Assembly: GCF_018398935.1 (NCBI RefSeq)
Contig: NZ_CP074694.1
Span: forward strand, 3,690,001-3,722,000
Source of the DNA: Telmatocola sphagniphila
GTDB lineage: Bacteria; Planctomycetota; Planctomycetia; Gemmatales; Gemmataceae
Direction: 5' to 3'
Length of the DNA stretch: 32,000 nucleotides
The notes under the pieces are model-generated. The model did no database searches, had not been told where the DNA came from, and saw nothing but the letters and a program-made list of their open reading frames with translations. Numbering within the stretch: position 1 is the first letter of the stretch; every line of letters begins with the position of its first letter. Below are positions 4,548 to 24,426 of the stretch, one piece after another. Made by a program: the position numbers and the translations under genes.

Positions 4548-4554
4548 TTAATCC

Positions 4555-8019: not shown

Positions 8020-11000
8020 TTAGTGTGCCATGCTGCCCGAACCCTGCGGCGGTTCGCGATGCCCGTAGAAGCTGTAAAGCACCGGCATCAGATACTGCGT
8101 TAAGAGCAGTGAAGTGATCATCCCTCCCACAACTACGATCGCGAGTGGGCGCTGAGTTTGCACGCCGATCGGTTCAATGAAGCGGAAGTGCCCGGTGTGA
8201 TCCCAGGCCGGTCGAAGTGCCAAGGCCGCCGGGAGCAACCCGAGAATGGCGGTCATGGCCGTCATAACGACCGGGCGAAGACGTTTTTCTGCCCCTTCCA
8301 GAATGGCTTCCCGCAAAGGAACTCCGTGAGCCCGTAAAGCATTGAAGTAAGAGACCATCAGAAGACCGCCCATGATCGCCACGCCAAACAGCGACACAAA
8401 CCCCACGGCGGCGGAAGTGCTGAAGTTCGTTTCGGTCAGGATCAAAGCCCAGATGCCACCGACAGTAAGAGCTACCACGTTCGATAGCACCACAATCGCA
8501 TCCAAGAGGGAATTGAATGCCATGTAAAGCAGCACGAAAATCATCAGGAGAGCCATCGGGATAATTAACATCAGACGCGCTTCGGCGTCTTGCATCTGCT
8601 CAAACTCACCGCTCCATTCCGTGCGGTAAGGTGCGTTAATGAGATCGGCAGTCTTGGCCTTCGCTTCCTCCACGGCACCTGCCAGGTCGCGATTTCGCAC
8701 GCTGAATTTAACTGCAATCATGCGTTTGCCCTGCTCCCGGAAGATCATTGAGGCCCCGGGACGTACGAAGCTACCGTCTTTCCCCTGCTCGCCGTTGGAA
8801 TCCACAAAAGGTGTCACCAGTTTACCAAGTGGAACTCGTGGCGTATTTCCGAAATAATTCGTGGTGCCGTTGAACTGGCTGCCCGTCAAGGCGGGCCCAA
8901 GATTCTGCGTGCCGTTGGGTGCTAGACCTACGGATTGGCCAATCCCCCGATTAGAGCCGATCTGAGGCTGCCAGCCGCTGAAAACCTGATTGTTGATGAC
9001 ATCGACGGGAATGTTCAGGATCGAATGAACGTTATCTCGAAGCGGTTTGGGGAATCGAAGGCTGATGTCGAATCGCTTTTCCCCTTCGATCATCGTCGAG
9101 AATGCCTGACCCCCAACGGCAGTTTGCACCACGTTTTGCAGATCGGCGACGCTGACTCCCCATTGCTGGCACTTTACGGGATCCCAGGGGATTTCCAGGT
9201 TGGGCTGTCCCATGACGTTCATCGTGCCGACGTCTTCGATACCCTGAATATCTCGGAGTCTCTTCTCGACCTGCGCGGCCAATTTTTCGAGTTCTTCCAG
9301 ATCGGGGCCGAAAATTTTGACAGAATTATCACCTTTAACTCCCGAGATCGATTCCATCACGTTGTCGCGAATGTTCTGCGAAAAGTTCCAGTCGACCCCA
9401 GGTGTGGCTTTACGTAGATCCGACGTCATTTCTTCGATCAATTCGGTCTTGGTTCTGGGTCGCGTACCGTTGAAGTGGGACATCCAACCCTCGGTTTGCT
9501 TGACGGCAGGCCATTCACCGCGCGGCTTCAAGGGAACGAAAAATTCCGACTTATAGAAACCTTCGGGGTCGGTACCGTCGTCCGGGCGCCCCATTTGATT
9601 GGCTATGGCATCGATTTCCGGATATTTCATCATCACTTTGCGCGCTTCTCGCGAGCCATTGGCAACCGTATCGAGGGTAGCATTTCGAGGGAACATACCG
9701 CGTACCCAGAGATTCCCCTCTTCCAGTTCCGGCATGAATTCGCGACCCAAATGATCCTTGGCATAAACGATTGTGAAGGCCAGAAAGGCCAGCATGCCCA
9801 AGATGAAGAACCAGCGCAGGGCCAGCATATAGTCGAGAATGTGAAGGTAGACGGCCTTCATGGTACGGACCAGAAAGTTGTCCCGGGCTTCTTTGATATG
9901 ACCGAGAAATAACCGGCAGAGGACGGGAGTCAAGATGGTGGCCAGCATAAGCCCTCCCGCCAGAGCAAATGCGTAAGTATCGGCCATTGGCCCGAAGAGT
10001 TGCCCCTCGGCCCCCTTCATGGCAAAAAGAGGGATAAAGGCCACGACCATAATCAGAGTCGAAAACAGCAGTGGACGCGTGATTTCACCGCTGGACTGTT
10101 TGATTCGCTCTTTTAGTGTTAATTCGGAGTGTTCATTGGAAGTGAGTTTACGGAAGATGTTTTCCGCCATGATCACTGAGGAGTCCACGATAATTCCGAA
10201 GTCGACTGCCCCGATAGACAGAAGATTTGCTGACTTGCCCCGAGCATAGAGCATCGAGAAGGCAAACAGCAATGCCAATGGAATATTGATCGCCACAATC
10301 AGAGCTACGCGAACATTTCCGAGGAACATCAACAGAATCACGGCGACCAGACTGATTCCAACGACAAGATTTTCCTGTACGGTCTCGGTGGTGATTTCGA
10401 TGAGTTCTGTTCGGTCGTAGTAAGGTTCCAGTTTGACCCCGGGCAGAGTCGTCCCGGTTTTGGGATCATTCAATTCCGCAACTTTATCTTTCACGGCTTT
10501 CAGAGCGGGCAAAGAGTCTTCGCCTTTCCGGAGTAGTACGATGCACTGAACTTTTTCGTCTTCATCCTGCCAGACGACCGAACCGTCTTCACGAGTGATG
10601 TCGAGTTTGTTCGCATCTTTCTTCGGCGTACTGAGACTCACTTTACCCAGTCTGGTCTGATTACTGACCACTACCCCTTTCTGGCCGATTTCAATGCTGT
10701 TCAGCAGAGGACCGCCTTCGACCAGATCTTCGACCCGAATCGGCACGTTGTTGTAGGTGGTTACCACAGTTCCGCGGATTGATCGAATACGCCGTTCGTC
10801 TTCGGATCGGAGAATCTTCGCGGCCTTGAGCGGATCAGCCGCGATCACACTTTTGGACTGCATCGGATCGGACCCGCCCCCATAGAGACCCACGTTACGA
10901 ACGTTGATGGCATTCGCCCCTTGCAGCAGCACATCGCCGCCGCTGTTCATATTGGCGTTAGCGATAGCATTCTGAATCTGCGAGAGGGTCACGCCGTAGC

Positions 11001-11601
11001 GTCGCATCCGATCGGGATCGGGAAGAATCTCATAACGTTTGACGGTGCCACCGGCACTGGTCACGTCGATAATTCGCGGCACCCGCCGAAATTCTCGTTC
11101 CAGTGCCCAGTCTTGAAGAGCTTTCAAATCATTCAAGGTGTAGACATCCCGGCCACCTTCTTTGGGGCAGCTCAAGGTGTAGCGGTAAATTTCGCCCGTG
11201 GGGCTGGTGGGAGAAATGACTGCGTTGACGCCGTTGGGTAGCGGTTGAGAAATGTTCGCCAGACGATTGAGAACTTCCTGTCGAGCTTTGGTGTACTCCA
11301 TGCCATATTCGAATTGCAGACGCAGGTGAGCCAGACCGAACAGCGAACGGGTTCGGGTATATTTCAGATCGGGCATCCCAGCGAGGGTGATTTCCAGTGG
11401 AATGGTCACCTGCCGTTCGACTTCTTCCGCACTTGCACCCGGATACTGCGAAATCACCTCGACGATCGAAGGAGAAGGATCCGGGTACGCTTCGACATTG
11501 ACGTTCTTGAACGAATATGCGCCAAAACCGATCAATACCGCAGTCAGGAGCAGCACTACGAGTGTATTTTCGAGAGCCCAACCGATGAGACGCTGAAGCA
11601 T
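8020..11601 (-). CDS. Heavy-metal-efflux RND inner-membrane pump (CzcA/CusA family), unusually long (1193 aa)
   Basis: N-terminus ...VNVEAYPDPSPSIVEVISQYPGASAEEVERQVTIPLE is the CzcA/CusA hallmark. TM4 proton-relay motif AVDFGIIVDSSVIMAENIF. 12-TM RND layout with two large periplasmic loops. Confidence 0.9.
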   Translation of the reverse strand: MLQRLIGWALENTLVVLLLTAVLIGFGAYSFKNVNVEAYPDPSPSIVEVISQYPGASAEEVERQVTIPLEITLAGMPDLKYTRTRSLFGLAHLRLQFEYGMEYTKARQEVLNRLANISQPLPNGVNAVISPTSPTGEIYRYTLSCPKEGGRDVYTLNDLKALQDWALEREFRRVPRIIDVTSAGGTVKRYEILPDPDRMRRYGVTLSQIQNAIANANMNSGGDVLLQGANAINVRNVGLYGGGSDPMQSKSVIAADPLKAAKILRSEDERRIRSIRGTVVTTYNNVPIRVEDLVEGGPLLNSIEIGQKGVVVSNQTRLGKVSLSTPKKDANKLDITREDGSVVWQDEDEKVQCIVLLRKGEDSLPALKAVKDKVAELNDPKTGTTLPGVKLEPYYDRTELIEITTETVQENLVVGISLVAVILLMFLGNVRVALIVAINIPLALLFAFSMLYARGKSANLLSIGAVDFGIIVDSSVIMAENIFRKLTSNEHSELTLKERIKQSSGEITRPLLFSTLIMVVAFIPLFAMKGAEGQLFGPMADTYAFALAGGLMLATILTPVLCRLFLGHIKEARDNFLVRTMKAVYLHILDYMLALRWFFILGMLAFLAFTIVYAKDHLGREFMPELEEGNLWVRGMFPRNATLDTVANGSREARKVMMKYPEIDAIANQMGRPDDGTDPEGFYKSEFFVPLKPRGEWPAVKQTEGWMSHFNGTRPRTKTELIEEMTSDLRKATPGVDWNFSQNIRDNVMESISGVKGDNSVKIFGPDLEELEKLAAQVEKRLRDIQGIEDVGTMNVMGQPNLEIPWDPVKCQQWGVSVADLQNVVQTAVGGQAFSTMIEGEKRFDISLRFPKPLRDNVHSILNIPVDVINNQVFSGWQPQIGSNRGIGQSVGLAPNGTQNLGPALTGSQFNGTTNYFGNTPRVPLGKLVTPFVDSNGEQGKDGSFVRPGASMIFREQGKRMIAVKFSVRNRDLAGAVEEAKAKTADLINAPYRTEWSGEFEQMQDAEARLMLIIPMALLMIFVLLYMAFNSLLDAIVVLSNVVALTVGGIWALILTETNFSTSAAVGFVSLFGVAIMGGLLMVSYFNALRAHGVPLREAILEGAEKRLRPVVMTAMTAILGLLPAALALRPAWDHTGHFRFIEPIGVQTQRPLAIVVVGGMITSLLLTQYLMPVLYSFYGHREPPQGSGSMAH

Positions 11602-11703
11602 GAGATTCTCTAGGATGCGGGACGATATTCGAAAGGGAACCGAGTTCCCAGCCCCACATATGAAGGGCTGGCGATAACGATTATGCGATTCCCAGCGGGT
11701 TAA

Positions 11704-13260
11704 TTATTTCTTGTCGCTTTGCGATTGCAGGTTCTGCAACTCTCCAGCGAGTTCCAGGGCTCCCCGCTGAACGACGATTTCGCCCGGTTTGATTGCTTCC
11801 GCGCCGTTCTTCTGATCTTTGGTCGAAGGAACCTTCCGCAGAAAAATCTTTTCGCGACCGCGAACGGCCACTGACACGATTCGACGAGTGAATTCATTGT
11901 CAGCTCCCGTTTTTACGAACACGACGGGACCATCATTATCCTCGACTATCGCTTCGGTAGGTACTGCAACCAGATCGGGATCGGGTAGCAGGTTGATTGC
12001 AGCCGAAACCGCTTCGCCCACGAAATGGTTGCCCTTCAAATTATCGACCCAGCCGGTGATGGTACCGGTGTGCTGAGCGGGATCGATCACAGACCCCAGT
12101 TTATCGAAGGCGCCGACTTCCTCGCCAGCGGCGGGATTAGCCTGGAAGGTGATTCGCCAGCTGCGGTGCTTGGCGGCAATTTCTTTTTCCATTTCCACAC
12201 CCGGGCTATTGTTGGTCGGGTAGGTTTCGTCCCAACGCGAGATTCGCTCCAACTGTTGAATTTTGAAAAGATCTTCTTCATAGGCGTGAACCAGCACTTG
12301 CAGCCGATCCAGTTTAGCGATTTTAAAAAGATCCACCGTCGGATCGACGATATCGCCGATCGTCACATTCTTCTCGACAATTTTTCCATCGAAAGGGGCT
12401 CGAATAGCGACTTCCGCCCAGCTTCGTTCGACTTCGAGATCCGCCACGCCTTTGCTATCCGGCAGTTTTATCACGGGGGCTTTATCGCCTTTGAGCCGTT
12501 CGACTTCCTTGTTCAGAAAATCCATTCTCTCGGCTTCCCGCTTCACGGCGGCAATCTCTTCCTCGGTCAACTGCCAGGAACGCAGTGTGCGTTCCGCCCG
12601 CCCCACGGCAATCACATCCTGCATGAAGGAGCGAATGGCCGTGGTTAATTGATTCAGGGACACAATGCCCGTTTCAACCGACAGATATCGCTCCAGAACT
12701 CGCTTGTCGGCCATCATTTGCGAAGTTTGATCGACCAGTTCGCTTTTCTTTTCGCCGATATCCTTGCAGAACACGACGGCCAGGATCTGACCCTTTTTCA
12801 CGTAATCGCCGGGACGCAAGCCATTCTCCGGAACTATAGAAAGCCGTTCGGAGGTACTGGAGCTGTCGCCTTTCAGACCGATTTTGGTGATTTGACCCGC
12901 AAACAGGCTGTGAACTCGAGCTAATCGATTCGGATCGAGAATCGTGGTGCCCGGGAGTTTCAGCGCTTCGGGAGCGGGGGAATCTTCCACCTTGGCCAGG
13001 GTGAATCTTGGGCTAGTGAGCAGTTCCTTATCGAGAATGATGGCATCCTTGATAACTTTGCCTTCTTTATCTCGAGCCAGCTCAACCAGCGATTTTGGTT
13101 CTTCGTGCTTTTCCGCGGTTACGGTTTTCGGCTTCAATGATTCGTATTTTTCAGTGAGCCACGACCAGTTGAAACAAACCGCTACCACCAGGGCCACGAA
13201 AATCGCCGGCTTTAGACCCCGTTTGAGCCAAGTTCCAATAGAACGCTTGTTCTCAGCCAT
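11704..13260 (-). CDS. RND efflux periplasmic adaptor (membrane fusion protein, CzcB/HlyD-like)
   Basis: 518-aa ORF. N-terminal membrane anchor (PAIFVALVVAVCF). Lipoyl/barrel-sandwich-like segments (GDYVKKGQILAVV, IRAPFDGKIVEKNVTIGDIV), a coiled-coil hairpin region, and position directly upstream of the RND gene. Confidence 0.85.
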   Translation of the reverse strand: MAENKRSIGTWLKRGLKPAIFVALVVAVCFNWSWLTEKYESLKPKTVTAEKHEEPKSLVELARDKEGKVIKDAIILDKELLTSPRFTLAKVEDSPAPEALKLPGTTILDPNRLARVHSLFAGQITKIGLKGDSSSTSERLSIVPENGLRPGDYVKKGQILAVVFCKDIGEKKSELVDQTSQMMADKRVLERYLSVETGIVSLNQLTTAIRSFMQDVIAVGRAERTLRSWQLTEEEIAAVKREAERMDFLNKEVERLKGDKAPVIKLPDSKGVADLEVERSWAEVAIRAPFDGKIVEKNVTIGDIVDPTVDLFKIAKLDRLQVLVHAYEEDLFKIQQLERISRWDETYPTNNSPGVEMEKEIAAKHRSWRITFQANPAAGEEVGAFDKLGSVIDPAQHTGTITGWVDNLKGNHFVGEAVSAAINLLPDPDLVAVPTEAIVEDNDGPVVFVKTGADNEFTRRIVSVAVRGREKIFLRKVPSTKDQKNGAEAIKPGEIVVQRGALELAGELQNLQSQSDKK

Positions 13261-13602
13261 TAAAAAACCTTAATCAGAATTTTCTGCAGTTGGTATTCAC
13301 TGCACTGCAATTTATGCGCCTAACTCCTGGAGCTGGTCGCTAGCAATCCATGGTAACCAAATCACTTACGTTTCTTGGGTATTATCTGTTCGATTGAAAT
13401 TGAATCTGAGCGAAAACACGCCAGGAGTGGTCGACTGGAAACCACAGAGGTCGGCAGACGACCTCAGCAATTGTGAAGATTTGCTATCGATTTGGGCAGA
13501 CAACTAAAAAAATAGGTATTAAGCCGGAAGTCAGAATAGAGGCTCTGTTCTTCATTCGCGAACAGATCCTCAAATATTTTTTTTTGTGACGTAAACTCGG
13601 CT

Positions 13603-15108
13603 TTAAGGAAACTTCTCCATCTGCATTAAGCCTGAAAGCTGGGCAGCGTTTGTCCAAAGATTCTGCAGGGCATCAATGTAGTCGCTATTAGCCTGAATGG
13701 CCGTTCGTTGAATCTGCAGATAAGTGGCGAAGTCAAAGATACCGTTATCCAGGCCGGCTTTTATCAGACGGGCCGCCTCTTTAGAGTCTGCCAGAATACC
13801 CTTTTCGAAGCTATCCACCGTCTCCTTGGCCGCCAGATACTGGCTCAGGAGATTCTCAGCCTGGTTAACCAACGTCAGACGAATTGAATCGATATTCTCG
13901 ATGGACGAGGAGACGTTTGCCCGAGCGGCCCGAATATTCCCCTGGTTGCGATCCCATACTGGAATCGTAAAGCTCAGATTCAACCAGAACTGATCGGTAT
14001 TTTGTTGACCGGGCACCAGGCCAAACTGGTAGGCTGGCCCAATGGTGGGATTCGGGTATGGATCGATCTCCGCTCGGCGTTGCAGTAAACGATTTTGCTG
14101 TACGACCGACTGGGCCGCCTTGATCTGAGTGTGCTCCTGAGTGACGAATAGCAGCACCGCTTTTTCATCGAATACAGGATAAGGCCCCGTGACATTTCCG
14201 ATCAGCGTGCCAGTCACACAACCGGGCACACCGACAAGAGATTCGAGTTGCTTGCGATCGCCATCGAGAATGGCTTCCGCATTTTTCAGCTTCGCTCGCG
14301 TGGTATCGTAATCGACTTTCAAAGCCAGAACATCGTAGGTCGCTTTATCCCCCGCCTTCTTGATCTTCTCCACGGTCTCGTACGATTTCTTAACGATTTC
14401 CACGATCTCTTTCAGAACTTCGATGCGCTTCTGATCGATCAGCACCTGATAATACTGCTGCCGGACTTGAGCGAGCAGGGACAGCCGATTTTGCTTATAG
14501 GTCAATTCCGCCTGTCGAGTCGCTTCGTTGGCCGCGGCCTGATCGAGCCGCTTCTTACCCATCACGGGAATTTCCTGGGTGAAACCGGCGTTCAACGTGG
14601 TATTGCGGCCGTTATAGGTGAACGGATTATTGGCGTTGAATTGCGGATTGGGCATCACACCGGCCTGAATTGCCGATCCTTTGGAAGAGTCGATGGCCGC
14701 CCGGTCCCGCTTCATGATCGGGTTCATCTGATCGGCCAGATTTTCGAAATACTCGAGCGTCAGAGGTTGATTGCTTTTTGAAGCATCGACCAAACTCTTC
14801 ACTTCCGTCTGCAGGAAGCTGGTTTGCCGGATATCGCTCGCCGCCGGAAGCTGAGTTTTCATGCCGATAGGTTGCTCGACCAGCACGGCGGCGGGTTTTG
14901 CACCCGAGCTGGCAACCACTGGGGCAGTGGTGGTTCCGGCCACCGAAGGGGGTACTTGTGCAGAAGCGGACGAGAGAGCCGGCTTCAAGGATGTGGTGGC
15001 CGTCGGGATCTCCGGAGCGGAGGTGTTGGCTCGCGGCACTTGTGCGCATCCCACGCCGATGGCACCTGCTGAGGCGGCCAGCAATCCTTTTCGAATCAGG
15101 CTGTACAT
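13603..15108 (-). CDS. TolC/NodT-family outer-membrane efflux lipoprotein (CzcC-like)
   Basis: 501-aa ORF. Lipoprotein-type signal ending AIGVGC, an A/S/T/P-rich linker, then two OEP-type repeats (e.g. LTLEYFENLA..., AELTYKQNRLSLLAQVRQQYYQVL, ...YLQIQRTAIQANSDYIDALQNLW). Confidence 0.85.
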   Translation of the reverse strand: MYSLIRKGLLAASAGAIGVGCAQVPRANTSAPEIPTATTSLKPALSSASAQVPPSVAGTTTAPVVASSGAKPAAVLVEQPIGMKTQLPAASDIRQTSFLQTEVKSLVDASKSNQPLTLEYFENLADQMNPIMKRDRAAIDSSKGSAIQAGVMPNPQFNANNPFTYNGRNTTLNAGFTQEIPVMGKKRLDQAAANEATRQAELTYKQNRLSLLAQVRQQYYQVLIDQKRIEVLKEIVEIVKKSYETVEKIKKAGDKATYDVLALKVDYDTTRAKLKNAEAILDGDRKQLESLVGVPGCVTGTLIGNVTGPYPVFDEKAVLLFVTQEHTQIKAAQSVVQQNRLLQRRAEIDPYPNPTIGPAYQFGLVPGQQNTDQFWLNLSFTIPVWDRNQGNIRAARANVSSSIENIDSIRLTLVNQAENLLSQYLAAKETVDSFEKGILADSKEAARLIKAGLDNGIFDFATYLQIQRTAIQANSDYIDALQNLWTNAAQLSGLMQMEKFP

Positions 15109-15163: not shown

Positions 15164-16288
15164 TTAATAGGAGAACTCCGCTCGGGCTACGATTCCTTGC
15201 AGAAACAGCTTTGCTTTCGAGTCGTCGGTGTTAACGTTCCACCATTGTTCCAGGCTGTAGGCGAGCGTGAAGCGCAGGCGATTCTCAAACCCCAGAGGCG
15301 TATAGGTCAAACCCGCTTCAAAGCTGCCGATGCCGACCCCGGTGTTATGGCTGCCAGTGTTATAAGCGGCCGCTTGCGGCATCCCGGCATTCAAAGCGGT
15401 CTGGTAAAACTTCTGATCGATCGAGCCGACCACCCCACTCGCTTCCAAACGGGTATGGAGAGCGAGGCCGTTGTCAGTCAGCGCAGGATTCCATTCGACG
15501 AAAGTTCGCGGTCCGATACCGGTGAACATGCTGCTGATATCCTGATTCAGCAGTTGTCGTCCGGCCCCCTGCGTATCGAAGTAGAGTGTTGCCACTCGCA
15601 AACCGATGCCGAAGCTCAAGTAGCGGAAGTAACTGTGCGAAGTTTCGCGTCCTTCACCCAGAAATTCGGGGGCTACGTAATCGAGATCGATGGTATTTGC
15701 ATTCAACCGGCTGCGAATCAGCCCCGGTCCGGCGGTATCGTAAACGCCCAGCGTCTCGCTTCCCGAAGAGGCTAAGAGGCGGTAGCTGAGCTGCAGTTCG
15801 CCCATTCCCTCCGAGAGCCGGTACCCGGCGGTCAGCTTGGGGGCACCGGCCCAGTCGATACTGGATACCGTCTGAGAAATCACCGGGCCGTTGAACGCAG
15901 CTGGCGTCGTCAGCGAAGTGAACAGTTTTGGTTTCAGGAATCCAATTTCAAACCCGCCGTACCAGCTGGAGACTTCCGAACTGTCGATCAGAACCGGTCC
16001 CCAGGGCGGTGAAGGGGGAATCTGAGCGTTCATCAACCAACTGGTATTGGTGGGCGGCAGTGCACTGGAGGTGTTACCCATTCCCGCCGCCGCGGGCGGG
16101 GACGACTGCAAGGGAGTTTGAGTTTGATTGGTCGGGGCCGCGGGAATTACCGGCAAGCCGTTCGATATGGCCGTTGTATTGTTAACGGTGGGTGCTGGCG
16201 TATTGAGAGTCTGGGCCAGAGCACTCGGCGGAGCCACCGCCTCGCTCAATGAAGCGAGAGCACATAGAGAAATTAGCCAGGTGCGCAT
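15164..16288 (-). CDS. Putative outer-membrane beta-barrel (porin-like) protein
   Basis: Start moved to the ATG at 16288 (MRTWLISLCALASLSEAVA signal peptide, GAGGGG SD 6 nt upstream). P/T/S/N-rich linker. Alternating amphipathic strands. C-terminal beta-signal ...GIVARAEFSY. Ends 55 bp upstream of the OMF gene. Confidence 0.6.
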   Translation of the reverse strand: MRTWLISLCALASLSEAVAPPSALAQTLNTPAPTVNNTTAISNGLPVIPAAPTNQTQTPLQSSPPAAAGMGNTSSALPPTNTSWLMNAQIPPSPPWGPVLIDSSEVSSWYGGFEIGFLKPKLFTSLTTPAAFNGPVISQTVSSIDWAGAPKLTAGYRLSEGMGELQLSYRLLASSGSETLGVYDTAGPGLIRSRLNANTIDLDYVAPEFLGEGRETSHSYFRYLSFGIGLRVATLYFDTQGAGRQLLNQDISSMFTGIGPRTFVEWNPALTDNGLALHTRLEASGVVGSIDQKFYQTALNAGMPQAAAYNTGSHNTGVGIGSFEAGLTYTPLGFENRLRFTLAYSLEQWWNVNTDDSKAKLFLQGIVARAEFSY

Positions 16289-16389
16289 ATTTGACCCCTC
16301 ATCCAATCGATACAAGCGGTATAATCGGCAGATCAGGAGGAAGGGCTGTATTTAAAAAGTGTTAAAAGATTCAAGTTAAAAGAAAACGT

Positions 16390-16904: not shown

Positions 16905-18188
16905 TTAGTCGACCGCTTTGACTTTCGCATCCTTCAGCGTGAAAACGTAGTCTTCGGGATCATTTTTATTAAGTACCAGTTTGCCCACCACTTGCACCGG
17001 CCCGCGCTGCAATGTGGTCGCCTTGCCGGCCGCTAATTCAACTTGGATTAACCCGGTCGGCTCCGGACTTTCACAGAACCAGCACCCTATCGGAAATTCC
17101 AGAAGCAGGAAATTATTGATTTCCACGGCCTCGGCGGTGCTGAACTCAAAACCGGTGATCGTCACCGTCGTCCCGTCTAATTTTTCAAGATAGGGAAGAT
17201 ACTGAATTTTGAAAGGCTTTTGGATGGTCGTCTCTCCCAAGGCCGGCCAAGGCAGGAGATTGATGGCTCCTTTTTTAATCTCCGGTAAGTTCGCCGGATT
17301 GATTCGGCGCACGAGAGGACGAGCACTCAGGAACTTGATATCGGACCGGAATTTCGCATGTTCCGAATCGGGTAATTTAGCGATCTCGTCGGCGGCTTCC
17401 TTGTAGATACGCCGCCGTTCGCGGATATCCCCCTGCCCCATGCCAAACTCGCTGACGCAACCTTCTATGATGCTGGCCGCGGTTCGCACATCGCCGTGCG
17501 CGTTCGCTAACTCGGCCATTTGCCAGAGAAGTGGGCCATCCGAAGGGAGCCAGAGAGCAAGCTGTTCGATCAGGGCGACGTCGTTGGCGGGTAGTTTCTT
17601 CTTTTGTTCCGGGTCGATTTGTCCCGCCGTGGGACGATTTAAGCTACCGGTAAAGTCTATGCCGAAAAAGTTATCTCGAGGGGTCGCTTTCGCTTTTCGC
17701 AGCCGGATCAGTTTCAGATGGGTCGCTTCATAAGGTTTCCATTTCTCCGGAGCCAGGCGAACGGATTCCTCCAATTGCTTCTCGGCCTGATTCAAATCCC
17801 CGGTTAATTGCCACGCCGTACCCAGATTCGCTGCGATGGCGAAGTTTTTAGGATGCTGTCGAGCGGCCTCCCGCAACCAATCCAGAGCCTCGGTCAATCG
17901 ATTGAGTCGGATCAGTACCGCACCCAGATCGGCCGCTTCCTCGGCGGAGAGACTGCGAGACTTGGCTAGTTCCCTCAACTGTTTTGCGGCGGCTTCGTAT
18001 TGTTCCCGCTGAAGAGTCGCAGGGAATTTATCTGTGGGGGTGATGCCGATGGTCCGCAGCGCCCGATGGTCGAGCAGGAACCCCCGAAAATTGGCGGGAA
18101 GATCAGCATAGATCTCTTTGGAATAGTAGACGCCGGCCTGACAGTAGGCGGGAAGTAGAAGCAGGACAAGTAGAGGAATATAGCGCAT
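16905..18188 (-). CDS. Secreted TPR-repeat protein with C-terminal DUF3299-like domain
   Basis: Start moved to the ATG at 18188 (MRYIPLLVLLLLPAYCQA signal peptide); the 51-aa upstream extension is arginine-rich and implausible. TPR-like helices (AIAANLGTAWQLTGDLNQAEKQLEESVRLAP). C-terminus LDGTTVTITGFEF...NNFLLLEFPIGCWFCESPEP...IQVEL resembles DUF3299. Confidence 0.7.
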   Translation of the reverse strand: MRYIPLLVLLLLPAYCQAGVYYSKEIYADLPANFRGFLLDHRALRTIGITPTDKFPATLQREQYEAAAKQLRELAKSRSLSAEEAADLGAVLIRLNRLTEALDWLREAARQHPKNFAIAANLGTAWQLTGDLNQAEKQLEESVRLAPEKWKPYEATHLKLIRLRKAKATPRDNFFGIDFTGSLNRPTAGQIDPEQKKKLPANDVALIEQLALWLPSDGPLLWQMAELANAHGDVRTAASIIEGCVSEFGMGQGDIRERRRIYKEAADEIAKLPDSEHAKFRSDIKFLSARPLVRRINPANLPEIKKGAINLLPWPALGETTIQKPFKIQYLPYLEKLDGTTVTITGFEFSTAEAVEINNFLLLEFPIGCWFCESPEPTGLIQVELAAGKATTLQRGPVQVVGKLVLNKNDPEDYVFTLKDAKVKAVD

Positions 18189-18410
18189 TTTGAAGCTTCC
18201 GGTGAAATTCGGCCTCCCGGTCGATCGGGCAATTAAGGCAAGTCGAAAACGTCCTTTCGATAGCCTACCGGGCGAAAATTCGGCTCGAACAAGCTTTTTT
18301 CTTTTTCGACACCTCGAAATTCCTATCGACATCTTACGCAAGTTCGGCTATGCGACGCTCCAACGGTGGGGGAGCCGTACCTATTTGGTCCCACACTGGG
18401 GGGGGAAATC

Positions 18411-19772
18411 ATGATCGTTCAAGCCGGGAATATTCCCATGCTGAAAAATGCTTTTCGCGCGGCGCTGGCACTCACGCTGGGCCTGGGGGCGACGCAGGTT
18501 CACGCACAAAACATCGTTGGCGGCGGTGCTTCGGGGATGCCCACGATGAGTGTCCCGGCCAGCAACATCCAAGGAATGTCCGGATCCTCCGGCGTCAGTG
18601 GCCTCAGTTCTCCTCCAAATCCGTTTAGCAGCCCGTCGAGCGGCAGCTCGTCTATTACCAGCGGCAGCACCGATACAAGCCGCATTTATGCCGGCTTCGA
18701 ATACCTGCTGTGGGATATTCCCAATCGTTCTGTCCGAATTCCCGTGGGGACAGTCGGAGATACCAATTCTCTCGGCGTCCTCAACCAACCCGCCACATCC
18801 TTGCTCGGGGGAAACAGTACCAATTACGGGAACTGGACTCCCGGAATGAAGCTCAACTTCGGAGTCTGGTACGACGACAACCATAGCTACGGATCCAACC
18901 TCAGCTTCCTCTGGATGTTCAGCCAGAAGTCTACGTACATGGCCCAGTCCGACGGAAACGGTAATCCTGTAATCTCACGACCATTCTTTGATACTCTATT
19001 CGCAACCGAGGATGTTCGACTGCTCTCCTTCCCCGGCGCCAACACCGGCGGTTACCTCACTCAATCGACGGTACGGATGTGGGGTGCAGAAGTGAATCCG
19101 CTGATTTGCAGTATCTTCGGCGATTCCACTTTCAATTTGAGTTTCTTGACCGGTTTCAAATATCTGTATTTCAATGAAACCTACAACATTCGGGATTCAT
19201 CGAATGCAATTGGTCCAGGCAGTATCTTCTACCTCGGCAACGCCTTCGGTGCCGGGTACGGCACCAGTGTTCTCGATCACGTAGTGGCGGCCAATCACTT
19301 CTACGGATGGAATCTCGGCTTGCAGTTCCACGGGGAATTGAGCAACTTCCTGTTCGATGTGGCGGGTAAGGTCGCCATCGGTGCGAACGAAGAAGTTGTC
19401 GATATTTACGGAGCCACGACGCTCTTGAGAAACAATGTCTACGTTCAAGGAACGCCGGGCGGTTTGCTTGCTCAGCCGAGCAATAGCGGCTCGTTCGACA
19501 AATTTAACTTTGCAGTCATGCCCGAATTGAATGCCTCGATTGGTTACCGGATTATCCCGGGGGTCGAGATCCATTTGACGTATTCCTTGATGTACGTCAG
19601 CAGTTTTGTCCGGGCACCGGATCAACTCCTGGCACGTCAGATTAATTCCGGCATCGTGCCCAGCAGTCCCAATTACGGCGTCGGCGGCAGCGGCCCGGCT
19701 CCCGTGACTTACCTCGATCGATCCGACTTCACGGCTCAATCGATCGGAATCAACTTAACTCTGTCTTATTAA
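18411..19772 (+). CDS. Putative outer-membrane beta-barrel protein (BBP7/DUF1551-like)
   Basis: Signal peptide ...AFRAALALTLGLGATQVHAQ (start at 18411, or the ATG at 18438). S/G/P-rich linker. IYAGFEYLLWDIP motif typical of the planctomycete BBP7-type barrels. C-terminal beta-signal SIGINLTLSY. Confidence 0.6.
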   Translation: MIVQAGNIPMLKNAFRAALALTLGLGATQVHAQNIVGGGASGMPTMSVPASNIQGMSGSSGVSGLSSPPNPFSSPSSGSSSITSGSTDTSRIYAGFEYLLWDIPNRSVRIPVGTVGDTNSLGVLNQPATSLLGGNSTNYGNWTPGMKLNFGVWYDDNHSYGSNLSFLWMFSQKSTYMAQSDGNGNPVISRPFFDTLFATEDVRLLSFPGANTGGYLTQSTVRMWGAEVNPLICSIFGDSTFNLSFLTGFKYLYFNETYNIRDSSNAIGPGSIFYLGNAFGAGYGTSVLDHVVAANHFYGWNLGLQFHGELSNFLFDVAGKVAIGANEEVVDIYGATTLLRNNVYVQGTPGGLLAQPSNSGSFDKFNFAVMPELNASIGYRIIPGVEIHLTYSLMYVSSFVRAPDQLLARQINSGIVPSSPNYGVGGSGPAPVTYLDRSDFTAQSIGINLTLSY

Positions 19773-19794
19773 TCGCATAAAATTGCTCACAATT

Positions 19795-19927: not shown

Positions 19928-20470
19928 ATGAAGCATCTTCTCAGCCTGTTCCTCTTTAGCGGGTTAGCCTCTATAACTCTAGCCGGCGAGCCGCATCTGA
20001 AGGTCAGTGCGACCTTCGAGCCTGCGGACGCCAAGCCGGGCCAGGTAGTCACCCTGAAAATCAAGGCCGAGATGGATCCCGAATGGCATACCTACCCAAC
20101 TGTACAGCAGGATAAGGCCGCCAAGGATCAAGTGAATAAAGTGTTGTTCGATCCCAATGGCCCCTTGGTATTCGTGGATAAGATGATCGAACCAGCCAAT
20201 CCCACCATTAAAGAAGAACCCGACTTGGGAATCAAAGCCATGCACTACTATCCGGGTGGAGGCGTCTGGGAAAAAAAGGTGGTCATTTCTCCTAATGCTC
20301 CAGCGGGCAAACTGACGACCAAGTTCACGTTCACCGTACTGACCTGCGACAAGAATAATTGCCTTCCGCCGAAAAAAGTTCCTCTGGAAGTCAGCTTGAA
20401 TGTCTCCGGCGCACCCGTGCCGGTCGATCCCAAGTACAAAGAGGATGTAGCTAAGGCCCTCAAAAAGTAA
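19928..20470 (+). CDS. Secreted DsbD-alpha-like (DsbD N-terminal domain) thiol-disulfide protein
   Basis: Start at MKHLLSLFLFSGLASITLA (signal peptide). GQVVTLKIKAEMDPEWHTYPT and the C-terminal FTFTVLTCDKNNCLPPKKVPLEV match the immunoglobulin-like DsbD alpha domain, with its paired Cys and C.PP motif. Confidence 0.7.
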   Translation: MKHLLSLFLFSGLASITLAGEPHLKVSATFEPADAKPGQVVTLKIKAEMDPEWHTYPTVQQDKAAKDQVNKVLFDPNGPLVFVDKMIEPANPTIKEEPDLGIKAMHYYPGGGVWEKKVVISPNAPAGKLTTKFTFTVLTCDKNNCLPPKKVPLEVSLNVSGAPVPVDPKYKEDVAKALKK

Positions 20471-20501
20471 CCAGTATCCCATCGACAGCATCTAAGATCT
20501 T

Positions 20502-20535
20502 AGACGGGTATCATGCACAAGCCTGATACCCGTCT
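20502..20535 (+). terminator. Intercistronic stem-loop (possible attenuator or processing site)
   Basis: 12-bp perfect stem agacgggtatca / tgatacccgtct with a 10-nt loop, followed by cttgtt (weak T-tract). Lies between the alpha gene and the beta-gamma gene. Confidence 0.35.
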
Positions 20536-20577
20536 CTTGTTAATACCTTCGCTGTTCCACATACTCTCTGGCGAATC

Positions 20578-22134
20578 ATGACTTCAAAACTCCATCCGCT
20601 GGTGCTGATTGCCGCCCTGCTCACTTTGGCTGCTCTCCCTCAGTTAGCCAGCGCGCAGGACATGGCCCTGGCAGAAATTGGCTTCAAACTCCCGGCCACC
20701 CGGGATCTGAAACCGGATCTGGATGTCATCGCCGAAAATATTGTGAAAGAGGAATCGAACACGGCTACTTTCGCCGCTTTCGTACTCGCGGCCGCCGCGT
20801 TTGGCATAATCACGCTCCTGACACCTTGCGTGTTCCCGATGATTCCCATCACCGTGAGCTTCTTTTTGAAGCAGGGAGAGAAGAAAAAAGCGAATCCGCT
20901 GGCACTCGCCACAGTCTATACGGCCACGATCGTGATCGTGCTCGGTGTGGCCGCCGTGACCTTGATCAAGGAGTTTCGCGACCTGGCCGTGAATCCCTGG
21001 GTGAACGTGGCTCTGGCGTTTCTCTTTGTCTTCTTCGCCATGAGCCTGTTCGGGATGTTCGATATTGTGCTGCCGAGCTTTCTGGTGCGGGCTACATCGT
21101 CCCAAGAAGGTCGTGGCGGTTACCTCGGCACCATTTTCATGGCGCTTTCGTTTACAATCGTCAGTTTCACTTGCGTCGCCCCGTTTATGGGAGGCTTTGC
21201 CGGTCTGGCTGCCTCGGGTAAGATGAGCCGGCTGCAACTTTATAGCGGCGGATTGGTATTCGCCGCCACCTTCGCGGCCCCATTTTTCCTTTTGGCGCTA
21301 TTTCCGAGTCTGCTCAAGAAACTGCCCAAGAGCGGTTCCTGGATGAATACTGTGAAGGTATTCATGGGCTTCTTGGAAATGGCGGCGGCCCTCAAATTCC
21401 TTCGCACAGCGGAAATTCGCTGGTATAGCCCACCTGTGCTTTTCACCTACGATTTTGTGCTCGGTATCTGGATCGCCCTTTTATTGCTGGCCGGGCTCTA
21501 TCTTTTGGCGATGTATCGGCTCCCTCATGACGAACCGATGGAGCACATCGGCGTTTTTCGGCTATTTTTCGCCATTGCGGCGTTCTCCCTGGCGGCCTAT
21601 CTTTTTCCCGCTTTATTCCCGGGCAAAAACGGTGAGAAAAATCGCCCGGCCGGAATCGTGTTCGCCTGGGTGGATGCGTTTCTACTGCCGGAGTCGGAAG
21701 AAACCAGCTCTACCGGCCTCATCATTTCGTCCGACTTGAAACGAACGCTCGAAGAAGCCCGTCGTAAGAACAAGCTGGTCTTCCTCGATTTCACAGGTGT
21801 CACCTGCACGAACTGCCGGCTCAACGAGAAAAACGTTTTCCCGAAACCGGCGGTGGCCGATTTGATGAAGAAGTATCTGAACGTGCAGATGTATACCGAT
21901 ACGGTTCCAGCGAATCTTTACGAAGGCACGGCCTCCGACGAGAAGCGGGAGAAAGATGCCGAGGCGATTCTGGAATTTCAACAGAAGGTGCTGAATACGA
22001 TTCAGTTGCCAACCTACGCGATTTTGAAGCCGGTTGAGGGGGGAAAGTATCAACTGGTGGGCACCTACGAGGAAGGCAAGATCAACAATGTAGAGGCTTT
22101 CGTTAACTTCCTCAAGAAACCTCTCGAAAAATAG
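20578..22134 (+). CDS. DsbD-like thiol:disulfide electron transporter: CcdA/DsbD-beta membrane core fused to a C-terminal thioredoxin-like (gamma) domain
   Basis: 518-aa ORF. Signal peptide. Conserved membrane Cys motifs LTPCVFPMIPITVSFF and SFTCVAPFMGGF. Multiple TM helices. C-terminal LVFLDFTGVTCTNCRLNE (CxxC thioredoxin-like site). Confidence 0.85.
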   Translation: MTSKLHPLVLIAALLTLAALPQLASAQDMALAEIGFKLPATRDLKPDLDVIAENIVKEESNTATFAAFVLAAAAFGIITLLTPCVFPMIPITVSFFLKQGEKKKANPLALATVYTATIVIVLGVAAVTLIKEFRDLAVNPWVNVALAFLFVFFAMSLFGMFDIVLPSFLVRATSSQEGRGGYLGTIFMALSFTIVSFTCVAPFMGGFAGLAASGKMSRLQLYSGGLVFAATFAAPFFLLALFPSLLKKLPKSGSWMNTVKVFMGFLEMAAALKFLRTAEIRWYSPPVLFTYDFVLGIWIALLLLAGLYLLAMYRLPHDEPMEHIGVFRLFFAIAAFSLAAYLFPALFPGKNGEKNRPAGIVFAWVDAFLLPESEETSSTGLIISSDLKRTLEEARRKNKLVFLDFTGVTCTNCRLNEKNVFPKPAVADLMKKYLNVQMYTDTVPANLYEGTASDEKREKDAEAILEFQQKVLNTIQLPTYAILKPVEGGKYQLVGTYEEGKINNVEAFVNFLKKPLEK

Positions 22135-22179
22135 GCTGGAATTGACCCGAGATCGAAATTAAGGTATGATTTAATAAGC

Positions 22180-22635
22180 ATGTTGCGAAGTCTCTTCTGC
22201 GTCTGGTTTACCATTTTCAGCCTTTTCGGGCCGGTGCTCTGCTGTTGTATTTTGAAGCCACTGGCCGCTGCTGAACCGTTGAATTTCAGTTCTGAAGCGA
22301 CGCCGGAAGCGGAGCCAGTCGATGAATGCCCTTTCTGCAAGGCCGAAAAAGCCAAGACGACCCATCCTGCTAAACCGCAGCCCTCTCCGCCCAAAGAAAG
22401 TCCGATTAAGTGCCCCTGCCAGGGACAGATCACTCAGGTGGATCTGAACATTCCGCCCGCAAATACCTCGGCGGAACTGAGCTGGAATCTCAGTCAATGG
22501 GATGGGGTTTGGGTTTATCTCGTTCAAAATCCGACAACTGAAAATCTAACTCCCCTTGATTTCGCATTCGAGCGGCCCCCCTGGCCGATGGCTCTTCGCG
22601 ATTCACTCGCTTTGCTGCAGATCTTACGCTGTTAA
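22180..22635 (+). CDS. Hypothetical signal-anchored protein with CPFC and CPC motifs
   Basis: 151-aa ORF on the same strand, 45 bp after the DsbD-like gene. Hydrophobic N-terminus (FCVWFTIFSLFGPVLCCCIL), then DECPFCKAEK and IKCPCQGQ. No family recognised; SD is weak. Confidence 0.45.
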   Translation: MLRSLFCVWFTIFSLFGPVLCCCILKPLAAAEPLNFSSEATPEAEPVDECPFCKAEKAKTTHPAKPQPSPPKESPIKCPCQGQITQVDLNIPPANTSAELSWNLSQWDGVWVYLVQNPTTENLTPLDFAFERPPWPMALRDSLALLQILRC

Positions 22636-22728
22636 CGGACAGTAGATTCTCAAATTGGATCTTTAACCTCGTCGTTCAGGAGCTAGGCTTCCTGACACCA
22701 AGATTTGTTCGACACTATTTCAAGTGAG

Positions 22729-23037
22729 ATGAATTCCATGATTACGAAACTAATCGCGGCCTCGGCCGCTCTGATGATGGGTATTACCCTGGGTTTCAGC
22801 GGTGCGAGTTCCAGCAACCGAAATTGCTGCACCGAGGGTGCGGCCTGTTGCTTCGAAGGTTCGCCTTGCTGCGAATCGTATGGAAACTGCTGCTATGAAG
22901 GTGCGGCCTGTTGCCTTGAAGGTTTGCCTTGCTGCGAGTCGGTGAAAGCTACTTCGGCGACGAGCAAATCCTGCTGTGGCGCAGGCTCGGCTTGCTGCGA
23001 AGTGGGCGCTGATTGCTGCACCGAAAGCAGCAAGTAA
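22729..23037 (+). CDS. Secreted cysteine-doublet repeat protein (nine CC pairs, CC-x5 heptad register)
   Basis: The ORF track gives 22705..23037 (TTG start); the ATG at 22729 or 22738 precedes a signal-like segment ITKLIAASAALMMGITLGFSGASS. Mature part: CCTEGAACCFEGSPCCESYGNCCYEGAACCLEGLPCCES-(linker)-SCCGAGSACCEVGADCCTESSK. A 63-nt tandem duplication at 22825-22887 / 22888-22950 preserves the frame. Confidence 0.6.
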   Translation: MNSMITKLIAASAALMMGITLGFSGASSSNRNCCTEGAACCFEGSPCCESYGNCCYEGAACCLEGLPCCESVKATSATSKSCCGAGSACCEVGADCCTESSK

Positions 23038-23094
23038 GAATGCGAAAGGGGTGGGTTTGAAAACCCACCCCCCATCATCACATTAAAAAAAGAG

Positions 23095-23120
23095 GGCCCT
23101 GCCGAAGCAGGGCCTTTTCG
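23095..23120. terminator. Bidirectional rho-independent terminator
   Basis: Stem ggccctgc / gcagggcc with loop cgaa, an A-run upstream (aaaaaaaga) and ttttcgttt downstream. Lies between convergent gene ends 23037 (+) and 23152 (-). A second hairpin ggggtgggttt / aaacccacccc is at 23048-23071. Confidence 0.7.
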
Positions 23121-23151: not shown

Positions 23152-24426
23152 TTAGCCCACCAGTTCCTTGATCGGCAACACATCGGCTTCCTTGTCGGCG
23201 GCCAGATAGGTAGGACGACCCAGGTTGTCGCGGATCTGAGCCTTGGGATCAAGACCCAGTGCGGCATAGATCGTCGCATAAAGATTGTTGATCTTAACCG
23301 GGTTGTCTTTGACCATTTCGCCGCCGGCATCGGTCGAGCCGACCACTTGGCCGCCCTTGATGTTACCACCAGCGACAACCACCGACCAAGCTCGAGGATA
23401 GTGGTCGCGGCCACCGTTCTGATTGATGCGAGGAGTTCGGCCGAAGTCGCCCATCCACACTACAACCGTGTCTTTCAAGCGGCCCGACTTTTCGAGGTCT
23501 TCAATCAAAGATCCCATGGCTTTATCGAGCGTCGGCAAAGCCCGAGTAGCGAGAGCATTGAAGATACCGGCGTGCATGTCCCAACCACCCAGTGACACTT
23601 CGACGGCGACAGCTCCGGCTTCGGTTAATTTCTTGGCCAGCAAGCAGCCTTTGCCGAAGTTGTTATTACCGTAGCGGGTAATGTCGGACTGATTGTTCAG
23701 AGCAAAGAGATCCTTCTTGCTGCTGACCACCAGATTCATGGCCTTGCCGTAAACTTCCTGGTGGGACTTCGAAGCGTCCTTATCCAGGTGGGTGCTGTGC
23801 TGGAAACCCGCTTCCAGCTTGTTGAACATGCTTTCGCGGGTTTTCATGCGGTCGGCCGTCACATCCGAAGGAGTCTTGATATTTTCGGGAGGAAGACCGG
23901 GGTTTTGTACGTTGAACGGAGCATAGCGCATCCCGAGGAAGCCGGGGCCGCGTGATCCGCCGCCGGCCGAGATGAAGGAAGGCAGATCGGTTTCATTTTC
24001 GCGATTGAGGTAGCTCAGAACCGAACCGATCGAGGGGAAGTCGACCAGCGGATTCGGGGAGCGGCCGGTGTTCATGAGGGTGGTGCCCCGCATGTGATCG
24101 CCTTCGGTCGTCGTCAGGCTGCGGATGATGGCCATGTTCTTCATCTGCTTGGCCACGGTCGGCAGGTGTTCGGAAATTTGGATGCCGCCTACCGAGGTGC
24201 TGATTGGCTTGTGTTCGCCGCCGTTGGCGTGACCGGGTTTCATATCCCAGAGGTCGATCGTGGAAGGTCCGCCGCCCATCCACAGGATGATCAGGCTCTT
24301 CTGTTTCTTTTTCAATTCCTTGCTTTGTGCGTGAATCGAATTCAAGAAAGCCAATCCCGGAAGGGACATGGCCGACATCCCTGCCATGTGACTCATAAAA
24401 TGCCGACGATTCTGGGTACCGAACAT
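23152..24426 (-). CDS. DUF1501 domain protein (sulfatase-fold, Tat-exported)
   Basis: 424-aa ORF. Twin-arginine signal QNRRHFMSHMAGMSAMSLPGLAFL. LIILWMGGGPSTIDLWDMKP and GRDHYPRAWSVVVAGGNIKGGQVVG are the DUF1501 hallmarks. Confidence 0.9.
   Translation of the reverse strand: MFGTQNRRHFMSHMAGMSAMSLPGLAFLNSIHAQSKELKKKQKSLIILWMGGGPSTIDLWDMKPGHANGGEHKPISTSVGGIQISEHLPTVAKQMKNMAIIRSLTTTEGDHMRGTTLMNTGRSPNPLVDFPSIGSVLSYLNRENETDLPSFISAGGGSRGPGFLGMRYAPFNVQNPGLPPENIKTPSDVTADRMKTRESMFNKLEAGFQHSTHLDKDASKSHQEVYGKAMNLVVSSKKDLFALNNQSDITRYGNNNFGKGCLLAKKLTEAGAVAVEVSLGGWDMHAGIFNALATRALPTLDKAMGSLIEDLEKSGRLKDTVVVWMGDFGRTPRINQNGGRDHYPRAWSVVVAGGNIKGGQVVGSTDAGGEMVKDNPVKINNLYATIYAALGLDPKAQIRDNLGRPTYLAADKEADVLPIKELVG

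Follow-up and report, generated by a model that had tools for sequence, protein, structure and literature searches.

The window analyzed here is a stretch of 32,000 nucleotides from the planctomycete Telmatocola sphagniphila (contig NZ_CP074694.1, positions 3,690,001 to 3,722,000). Its positions 19928 to 23120 hold four open reading frames (ORFs) on the forward strand, ORF1 to ORF4, which an initial annotation, made from the letters alone, took to be a dedicated reducing module: a split DsbD-type disulfide reductase, followed by two small cysteine proteins of which the second would be its client. Here, we argue for a different division. ORF1 and ORF2 are, judged by sequence comparison, a DsbD broken in its alpha-beta linker. 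ORF3 and ORF4 are a conserved and previously undescribed two-gene module, whose wider surroundings differ from locus to locus.

ORF1 (19928-20470, 180 amino acids) encodes a stand-alone DsbD-alpha-like domain behind a signal peptide. ORF2 (20578-22134, 518 amino acids) has a signal peptide of its own, a DsbD-beta core and a thioredoxin-like gamma domain. ORF3 (22180-22635, 151 amino acids) encodes a small, signal-anchored protein with cysteine motifs, and ORF4 (22729-23037, 102 amino acids, with alternative starts TTG at 22705 and ATG at 22738) a signal peptide followed by nine Cys-Cys (CC) doublets. The gaps between the genes are 107, 45 and 93 base pairs (bp). After ORF4 come a first hairpin on the forward strand (about 23048-23072, GGGGTGGGTTT GAA AAACCCACCCC, read by eye from the sequence) and a second that resembles a bidirectional intrinsic terminator (23091..23118), with a 12-bp stem and T-run on the forward strand and an 8-bp stem and T-run on the reverse. 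This second hairpin is common to ORF4 and a convergent DUF1501 gene (23152-24426, reverse strand). The four same-strand frames, their gaps, the motifs quoted from them and both 3' structures were all borne out on re-reading.

Promoters were sought by consensus scan only. Upstream of ORF1, a sigma-70-like match on the forward strand (TTAACT-17-TAAAAT, 19755..19783) agrees at 9 of 12 positions; it is a weak match, as three such sites were found where shuffles lead one to expect 2.3. The best-scoring promoter-like site of the whole region lies, on the same strand, inside the gap between ORF2 and ORF3 (TTGACC-17-TATGAT, 22142..22170, 10 of 12 positions), a gap that holds no terminator. This site is consistent with a separate promoter for ORF3 and ORF4, which the pair would require anyway at loci that have no DsbD.

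ORF1, ORF2 and the DsbD family

The membrane part of ORF2 is readily assigned. It matches the Pfam family DsbD_TM (PF02683) at an E-value of 6.4e-26 (91 bits, cut-off 27), and the domain behind it matches Thioredoxin_7 (PF13899) at 1.7e-7 (31.7 bits, cut-off 27) and the structure 3f9u in the PDB at 2.7e-6. ORF2 has exactly four cysteines. Two of these, C84 and C199, are the only ones in the membrane core, as the two essential cysteines of a DsbD beta domain should be, and the other two form the CxxC motif (CTNC, C410/C413) of a gamma domain fused to beta. This fused domain sets ORF2 apart from CcdA, which is a core without one. Against the NCBIfam model of the entire DsbD (PRK00293), ORF2 scores 119 bits, below the cut-off of 330, and it covers model positions 160-517 only, leaving the alpha part without a match.

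That alpha part is supplied by ORF1. Taken alone, ORF1 falls short of the DsbD_N family (PF11412; E 3.5e-4, 21 bits, under the 25-bit cut-off), and a sequence search of the PDB with it gave nothing meaningful. Its place in the family comes instead through homologues. It aligns with residues 57-215 of a fused DsbD homologue at a metagenomic locus, L031 (45% identity, E 2e-36), and a stand-alone alpha paralogue, which itself reaches the DsbD_N cut-off (25.1 bits), shares 47% identity with it. Its only cysteines are C140 and C145 (TCDKNNC), the two that an alpha domain calls for.

The same fused protein of L031 also aligns with ORF2, over its residues 242-731 and with 56% identity. Because ORF1 and ORF2 match adjoining segments of one homologue, the break between them is placed in the alpha-beta linker. 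The two are separate polypeptides here, divided by the stop codon of ORF1, a 107-bp gap and the signal peptide of ORF2; that this peptide is well formed argues against a frameshift introduced in sequencing. Jointly, ORF1 and ORF2 hold the six canonical redox cysteines of DsbD and none besides. The domain assignments proposed at the outset, an alpha-like domain in ORF1 and a beta core with a CTNC thioredoxin-like domain in ORF2, thus stand on both the Pfam matches and the alignment with the fused homologue.

The nearest DsbD relatives that a metagenome scan with ORF2 returned are three in number (54-56% identity), and each is a single alpha-beta-gamma chain of 725-763 amino acids. Two of their loci have, in addition to the full-length fused DsbD, a separate alpha-like paralogue upstream of it: L031 (718-1590 upstream of 4278-6473) and L032 (113-385 upstream of 428-2605). 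Because of this extra paralogue, the split layout of the window may stem from loss of an internal alpha domain, rather than from simple fission.

Compared with E. coli DsbD, the window's proteins have the same two cysteines in the beta core, the CxxC of gamma and two cysteines in an alpha-like domain, six in total. They differ in that alpha is a secreted protein of its own, that ORF2 has its own signal peptide and that the alpha cysteines are spaced C-x4-C; further, both proteins miss the curated cut-offs, as detailed above. A closer parallel in layout is ScsB, for which an independent alpha protein with a beta-gamma fusion has been documented, together with DsbD and ScsB proteins that lack alpha (Cho et al., 2012; PMC3322552). 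Here, too, alpha is its own protein and beta is fused to gamma. ORF2 is no ScsB by residue, however: eight residues past the first beta cysteine, where ScsB has a lysine, ORF2 has Thr92 (C84-VFPMIPI-T92), and ORF1 is nearer to DsbD_N than to ScsB-alpha. The alpha | beta-gamma layout is therefore not new, and the DsbD half of the locus is ordinary. It adds a DsbD-class example to the split layouts known for ScsB.

ORF4, ORF3 and their pairing

The product of ORF4 is anything but ordinary in composition. It holds 18 cysteines, every one within a CC doublet, and the nine doublets follow one another at spacings of 7, 7, 7, 7, 7, 14, 7 and 7 residues; the early description of an 18-cysteine protein with doublets in heptads was accurate. 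Nine doublets were reached by none of 100,000 shuffles of its mature part. The N-terminus resembles a signal peptide. Tandem Repeats Finder returned no rows for the ORF4 DNA, and the repetition lies at the level of protein, apart from one duplication of 21 amino acids (63 bp, 22825-22950, 47 of 63 bases identical). Neither ORF4 nor its relatives match a Pfam or NCBIfam family, the ORF4 profile has no PDB relative at E<=0.1, and the AlphaFold2 (AF2) model (pLDDT 50) is uninformative, with no confident fold.

This composition is so unusual that at least one gene caller misses it. The annotation of the source assembly leaves ORF4 uncalled, and none of 5.8 billion protein clusters is an entry for it. 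In general, annotation probably underrepresents CC-heptad genes (window 22729-23037; also L043).

The family around ORF4 was assembled from two proteins found by a word-based search (P0001 and P0002) and from 27 loci found by a pattern scan, with one genome taken per species. ORF4-like proteins are encoded at these 29 other loci, which belong to Planctomycetota, to Blastocatellia and other Acidobacteriota, and to a few bins with other labels. Searched by phmmer, the ORFs of 30 loci (29 distinct) gave matches with E-values from 5e-18 to 2e-3. Every member found begins with a signal-peptide-like segment. The distance from one CC to the next is 7 in 126 of 183 consecutive cases, the heptad consensus is C-C-[A/K/E]-E-G-A-A, and glycine occupies position 5 in 72% of heptads. 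ORF4 shows each of these traits, the signal peptide, the doublets every seven residues (seven of its eight spacings) and the glycine at heptad position 5. Exactly 18 cysteines, mostly as nine doublets, recur in 11 of the 29 members, although these differ in length and phylum, which is a hint of a defined assembly and not of a loose cysteine-rich tail.

By sequence or profile, ORF4 belongs to no described family of metallothioneins or copper-storage proteins. It shares with these (SmtA/BmtA, MymT, Csp1) a very high cysteine content and the lack of any other obvious function, and Csp1 is also exported. It differs in being Sec-exported, in matching nothing in Pfam or the PDB, and in having a membrane partner with cysteines encoded upstream at 23 of 29 loci. 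Its strict CC-x5 heptads, in which Gly, Ala and Glu abound, are also unlike the CxC and CxxC motifs of metallothioneins or the cysteine ladders of the helical Csp proteins.

A separate small protein with a cysteine doublet was seen in a metal context on the Xanthomonas plasmid pWG16.1, where a "GDCCVxC domain-containing (seleno)protein" is encoded within a mer operon (L045:15368-15595). Its sequence layout is unrelated to that of ORF4.

The gene before ORF4 is equally without a described family. ORF3 has one hydrophobic segment, at its N-terminus (residues 2-31), which contains CCC (GPVLCCC); CPFC (50/53), CPC (78/80) and a C-terminus ending ..ILRC follow. It matched no Pfam or NCBIfam model at E<=1 and no PDB entry. 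Its AF2 model (pLDDT 61, pTM 0.20) is mostly disordered, with a C-terminal helix too short to span a membrane. The literature, searched for planctomycete metallothioneins and for exported Cys-doublet proteins, yielded no relevant account. The suspicion that ORF3 and ORF4 had no known family thus proved sound as far as Pfam, NCBIfam, the PDB and the searched literature go.

ORF3 and ORF4 do, however, have each other. At 23 of the 29 other loci, the CC gene is directly preceded, on its own strand, by a gene for a signal-anchored protein of 120-190 amino acids with cysteine motifs. Typically, the anchor ends in a cysteine cluster, further CC, CxxC or CxC motifs follow, and the C-terminus contains cysteine; the CC or CCC cluster within the sole hydrophobic segment is nearly invariant. 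ORF3 has all of these motifs and stands directly before a CC-heptad gene. The distance from upstream gene to CC gene is 69-119 nucleotides at 17 of 18 measured loci (263 at the other). The look-up also works in reverse: all three ORF3-family proteins examined are followed by a gene for 89-103 amino acids, and the two of these genes that were read are CC-rich, the third encoding 89 amino acids.

The upstream proteins are of several types. ORF3 aligns with the protein encoded before the CC gene in L028 (BLASTP E 7e-6), and also with those of L011 and L024; together they form a subgroup with the pattern GPxLCCC ... C(P)xC ... CxC ... PPA ... HVL[RH]C. A larger planctomycete type reads LLLALPPGWCC ... 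CC ... C[PC]C ... LLCVW[RL]C-stop. Run against 1.84 billion representatives, a profile dominated by this PPGWCC type collected 937 clusters at E<=1e-3, of which 598 also passed E<=1e-10; their length is almost always 120-140 amino acids, and no Pfam domain is on record for any member. Compared by hhalign, the ORF3 subgroup and a 134-member PPGWCC profile gave a probability of 90%, across 22 anchor columns only, and ORF3 alone gave a weak 17%. An acidobacterial type ends in TYLRCCV[LF]LI. Homology of this type to the planctomycete one was not detected (hhalign probability 1%), and what the two share is architecture and position.

A further signal-anchored type, with ..CCGCC[VL]..C.., was observed upstream at L012 (5183-5623), L013 (3018-3488), L017 (2115-2651) and L016 (3485-3853). 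Elsewhere, an ICMT/PEMT-like gene (L036:4786-5565; also in L037) directly precedes an ORF3-family gene whose product has a C-terminal cysteine. A link between ICMT-like methyltransferases and the ORF3 family was set aside as coincidence, being confined to a single lineage.

If the split DsbD belonged to this system, its genes should be met again beside the pair. They are not. Every ORF of at least 40 amino acids at the 29 other ORF4-family loci was compared by phmmer (E<=1) with ORF1 and ORF2, in flanks of up to 8 kb, and no homologue of either was found; tblastn agrees. Flanks of the same extent hold no DsbD homologue at the loci of the closest ORF3 subgroup (L011, L024, L028), and three further places reached through ORF3-family proteins have no DsbD gene. 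Among 132 ORFs that lie within 3 kb of the pair at 24 representative loci, a census of Pfam families does not place DsbD_TM in the 25 most frequent. Approached from the other side, the three nearest fused DsbD relatives have no ORF3 or ORF4 after them.

This survey of related genomes, which the initial annotation had itself named as the means by which its proposal might fall, thus found no co-occurrence of ORF3 and ORF4 homologues with DsbD in the flanks examined. From that proposal, the domain calls in ORF1 and ORF2 and the novelty of ORF3 and ORF4 survive; the dedicated four-gene unit, with ORF4 as its client, finds no support in this comparison of gene order. Because the four-gene wiring is not conserved, it is the ORF3-ORF4 pair, and not the four-gene block, that evolution keeps as a unit. 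The adjacency to DsbD appears to be lineage-specific, and DsbD no part of the conserved system. The lesson for annotation is that the two-gene pair, rather than the block of four, is the object to study.

What the pair may do, and the alternatives

Clues to function come from the genes beside the pair, and from variation among its members. At five acidobacterial loci, genes for TlpA/ResA-like thioredoxins lie on the strand of the pair and at most 2.4 kb from it: L015 (6300-6968), L018 (6317-7009), L029 (6387-6983), L020 (4873-5412) and L021, where one flanks the pair on each side (6354-7007 and 9853-10356). All seven TlpA-like matches in 369 kb of locus DNA are within 2.4 kb of a CC gene, with none elsewhere in the flanks; counted as independent events, these come to about four, a modest enrichment. 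In the census of 132 neighbors, the thioredoxin/redoxin (TlpA-like) and VWA families are the commonest, with four members each.

Other clues point toward metal. In L015, L018 and L029, repeats of MKHD, rich in Met and His, are fused behind the CC region; in L030, that region is fused to an N-terminal domain rich in His and Met. In L002, the CC gene is flanked by genes for His/Met-rich and TRASH-like proteins. In L028, the locus with the closest ORF3 relative of the window, genes of the DUF4142 and LTXXQ (Spy/CpxP/ZraP-type) families (5416-5979 and 6010-6999) stand directly upstream of the pair. Within the window, an operon for a CusA/CzcA-type pump lies near the pair on the other strand, and this, with the scattered features of the other loci, hints at a role in metal or envelope stress. 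A conserved metal-resistance neighborhood was also considered, and finds no support in the census.

The reading that we prefer, and that we hold to be about evenly balanced between right and wrong, is that two modules have come to stand side by side: a split DsbD, and an envelope thiolate system made by ORF3 and ORF4. The first would be a DsbD-class transmembrane disulfide reductase with its alpha domain secreted as a protein of its own. If it works as E. coli DsbD does, electrons would pass from cytoplasmic thioredoxin to C84/C199 of beta, to C410/C413 of gamma, to C140/C145 of the free alpha and on to periplasmic clients. In the second module, ORF3 would be a largely disordered protein, tethered by its N-terminal anchor, with a cysteine cluster at the anchor's outer end and its cysteines on the same side of the membrane as the exported ORF4. 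ORF4, Sec-exported, would have a mature part that is almost purely C-C-x-E-G-A-x heptads, presenting 18 thiols in fixed register. With these it may bind thiophilic metal ions, Cu(I) being the leading candidate, or buffer oxidants. ORF3 would then be its partner at the membrane, for hand-off, loading or control, and DsbD may, at this locus, supply the reductant that keeps the thiols of both proteins free. The buffering, the role of ORF3 and the flow of electrons from DsbD to the pair are what we infer from these comparisons. As a weaker idea, the pair may, more generally, draw on a thiol-reducing pathway of the envelope.

Soft-metal binding or thiol buffering is favored on three grounds: His/Met-rich additions are present in several relatives, genes for thiol redox and envelope stress recur as neighbors, and no partner enzyme hints at peptide modification.

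Several observations weigh against this picture. Metal binding is backed by no homology to any protein of known function. The His/Met-rich additions occur in only about 5 of 29 family members, and the HMA, YHS, CusF and multicopper oxidase families are not in the top 25 of the neighbor census. Most genomic contexts of the pair are unrelated housekeeping genes. The AF2 folds of ORF3 and ORF4 are not confident, so that structure is neutral toward the model. For the upstream partner, the notion of one pair conserved across phyla would rest on architecture and position. Lastly, the 45-bp gap, free of terminators, means that the pair may be co-transcribed with ORF2 in the window, and so be functionally coupled to DsbD here after all.

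That last point is where the dedicated four-gene operon has its footing. According to this alternative, which we consider unlikely, the split DsbD is there to maintain ORF4 (and ORF3) in the reduced state, with ORF4 as its specific client and a periplasmic thiolate sponge. The layout speaks for it: all four genes are on one strand, ORF3 follows ORF2 closely, and the one terminator is that which closes the block. An exported protein with 18 cysteines plausibly requires a reductant. Further, TlpA-like thioredoxins recur beside the pair in Acidobacteriota, and in other bacteria such thioredoxins are fed by CcdA or DsbD. Nevertheless, DsbD is found, within flanks of up to 8 kb, at none of the 29 other CC-gene loci, the nearest DsbD relatives are without ORF3 and ORF4, and the region's best promoter-like site sits exactly where the two modules meet. 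Proteins of the DsbD class are, moreover, normally general hubs that serve several clients (see also PMC3322552). A known system that resembles such an operon is the copper-induced scsABCD of Salmonella, where a DsbD-family reductase likewise adjoins small cysteine proteins of the envelope in a copper context. Here, ORF3 and ORF4 are unlike ScsA, ScsC and ScsD, they lack the thioredoxin fold, and the adjacency is not conserved.

A more ambitious proposal joins several of these elements into one new envelope system: a thiolate-metal or polythiol assembly built on Cys-doublet heptads, its synthesis coupled to a co-translationally exported Cys-motif "sensor", encoded about 90 nucleotides upstream, whose last codons can mask the downstream ribosome-binding site, and with a dedicated split DsbD recruited in this genome to supply its reductant. 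We regard the whole of this as improbable. A narrower alternative, likewise improbable and slightly weaker again, is that ORF3 is no stable partner at all. Instead, the nascent, exported ORF3 chain would sense metal and control translation of ORF4 through its C-terminus and the structure of the mRNA.

The precedent for this is CutF of Rhodobacter capsulatus (DUF2946), a small exported Cys-motif protein encoded upstream of cutO, whose translation and export control the downstream gene through an mRNA stem that masks the Shine-Dalgarno (SD) sequence (PMC9973294). ORF3 resembles CutF in being small and exported, in its cysteine motifs and conserved extreme C-terminus, and in its position directly upstream of the gene that would be controlled. 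Its predicted disorder and the near-uniform intergenic distance also fit. Support comes from the acidobacterial loci. There, the last codons of the upstream gene (CCV[L/F]LI-stop) pair with the SD that precedes the CC gene, some 90 nucleotides downstream, the strands being UGY UGY GUN YUC CUG AUU stop and AGGAGAC[G/A]C. The helix was located in L004 (7870-7997), L006 (6914-7039), L005 (7667-7802), L008 (7783-7910), L015 (7792-7937), L018 (7801-7943), L029 (7746-7889), L020 (2959-3086) and L021 (7860-7991). In 6 of 10 acidobacterial loci the tail ranks second or third among about 165 windows for pairing with the SD. Where the Cys and Val codons vary synonymously, compensatory changes are seen beside the SD, and cognate duplexes are more stable than non-cognate ones (-14.6 versus -12.4 kcal/mol; permutation p 0.00025, a value inflated by the relatedness of the loci). 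This looks like translational coupling built into the gene, and the helix would be a compact case of a coding sequence doubling as a translational switch.

The window itself gives no clear support. The RNA of 22600-22790 does fold with a z of -2.8, in a structure where the AUG region of ORF4 is paired with the 3' end of ORF3, but in another frame z is -1.4, and the duplex of tail and SD ranks an ordinary 41 of 144. Starts of CC genes and of ORF3 genes do not differ in accessibility (p = 0.33), nor is the ORF4 start less accessible than that of ORF3. At planctomycete-type loci generally, the tail-SD pairing varies and does not reach significance (p 0.19). We make no claim for the window that ORF3 mRNA masks the start of ORF4. 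Homology of ORF3 to CutF was rejected: ORF3 has no match to PF11162 (DUF2946) at E<=1, and a single weak match among 28 family members (E 0.027), which none of 134 further members repeated, was put down to chance. The C-terminus of ORF3 is also not proline-rich. Metal-resistance plasmids, searched for the same family, had no annotated DUF2946 sequences.

To much the same small degree, it may be entertained that the cysteines of ORF4 are not free but joined in disulfides. ORF4 would then be a cross-linked structural protein of the envelope, or a secreted cysteine-rich peptide, and the DsbD- and TlpA-like enzymes would serve disulfide isomerisation. The strict register and the recurrence of 18 cysteines suggest a defined structure more than a loose sponge, and an abundance of cystine and proline has long been noted in planctomycete envelopes. 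Yet it is established chemistry that two adjacent cysteines do not readily form a disulfide with each other, no confident fold was obtained, and the His/Met-rich additions point to metal binding instead.

Less probable again is a relay of the MerT/MerP kind, in which ORF4 would pass a soft metal to the vicinal cysteine pair at the outer end of the ORF3 membrane helix, from which it would move across or along the membrane. The order of genes is that of merT-merP, a membrane protein and then a periplasmic cysteine protein, and the nearly invariant CC or CCC cluster in the sole hydrophobic segment recalls the vicinal pair in the first membrane helix of MerT. There is, however, no MerT, MerP or HMA match. 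ORF3 has a single anchor helix, its C-terminal helix being too short to cross a membrane, no merA or merR gene is present, and the neighbor census shows no conserved reductase or cytoplasmic acceptor gene nearby.

That ORF4 is no gene, but a chance frame in a repeat rich in cysteine codons, would explain why the assembly's gene caller skipped it and why protein collections lack an exact entry, and can be dismissed on its homologues at 29 loci in two phyla, which keep signal peptide, register and position, on the doublets that shuffling never produced, and on the terminator that directly follows it.

Of the two modules, the pair is the finding of greater use. ORF3 and ORF4 are a new and fairly widespread gene pair, of unassigned function and unusual sequence design, with an upstream-partner family of about 900 clusters at 50% identity. 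If proteins of the ORF4 type are periplasmic thiolate buffers, they would make up a class of exported proteins for handling metals or oxidants in Planctomycetota and Acidobacteriota of which our search of libraries and literature found no description. These phyla abound in soil and water, and the metal biology of their envelopes is poorly known.

Other genes of the window

The metal-efflux operon mentioned above lies at 8020-15108 on the reverse strand. It encodes a CusA/CzcA resistance-nodulation-division (RND) pump, a CusB-like adaptor and an outer-membrane factor. The pump gene itself (8020-11601, reverse strand) is of the CusA/CzcA type by its match to TIGR00914 (750 bits, cut-off 701). 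An efflux operon had been reported to end 3.6 kb upstream of the four genes. The operon is there, though its nearer edge (15108) is about 4.8 kb from ORF1; the shorter distance fits the next reverse-strand ORF, an OMP-like gene at 15164-16315. Between that gene and ORF1 are the genes for a TPR protein with a weak DUF3299 match (16905-18341) and, directly upstream of ORF1, for a BBP7 porin (18366-19772). On the far side of the efflux operon, a DDE_Tnp_1 transposase gene (6295-7356) stands between it and a HemN-like radical SAM gene (2245-3585).

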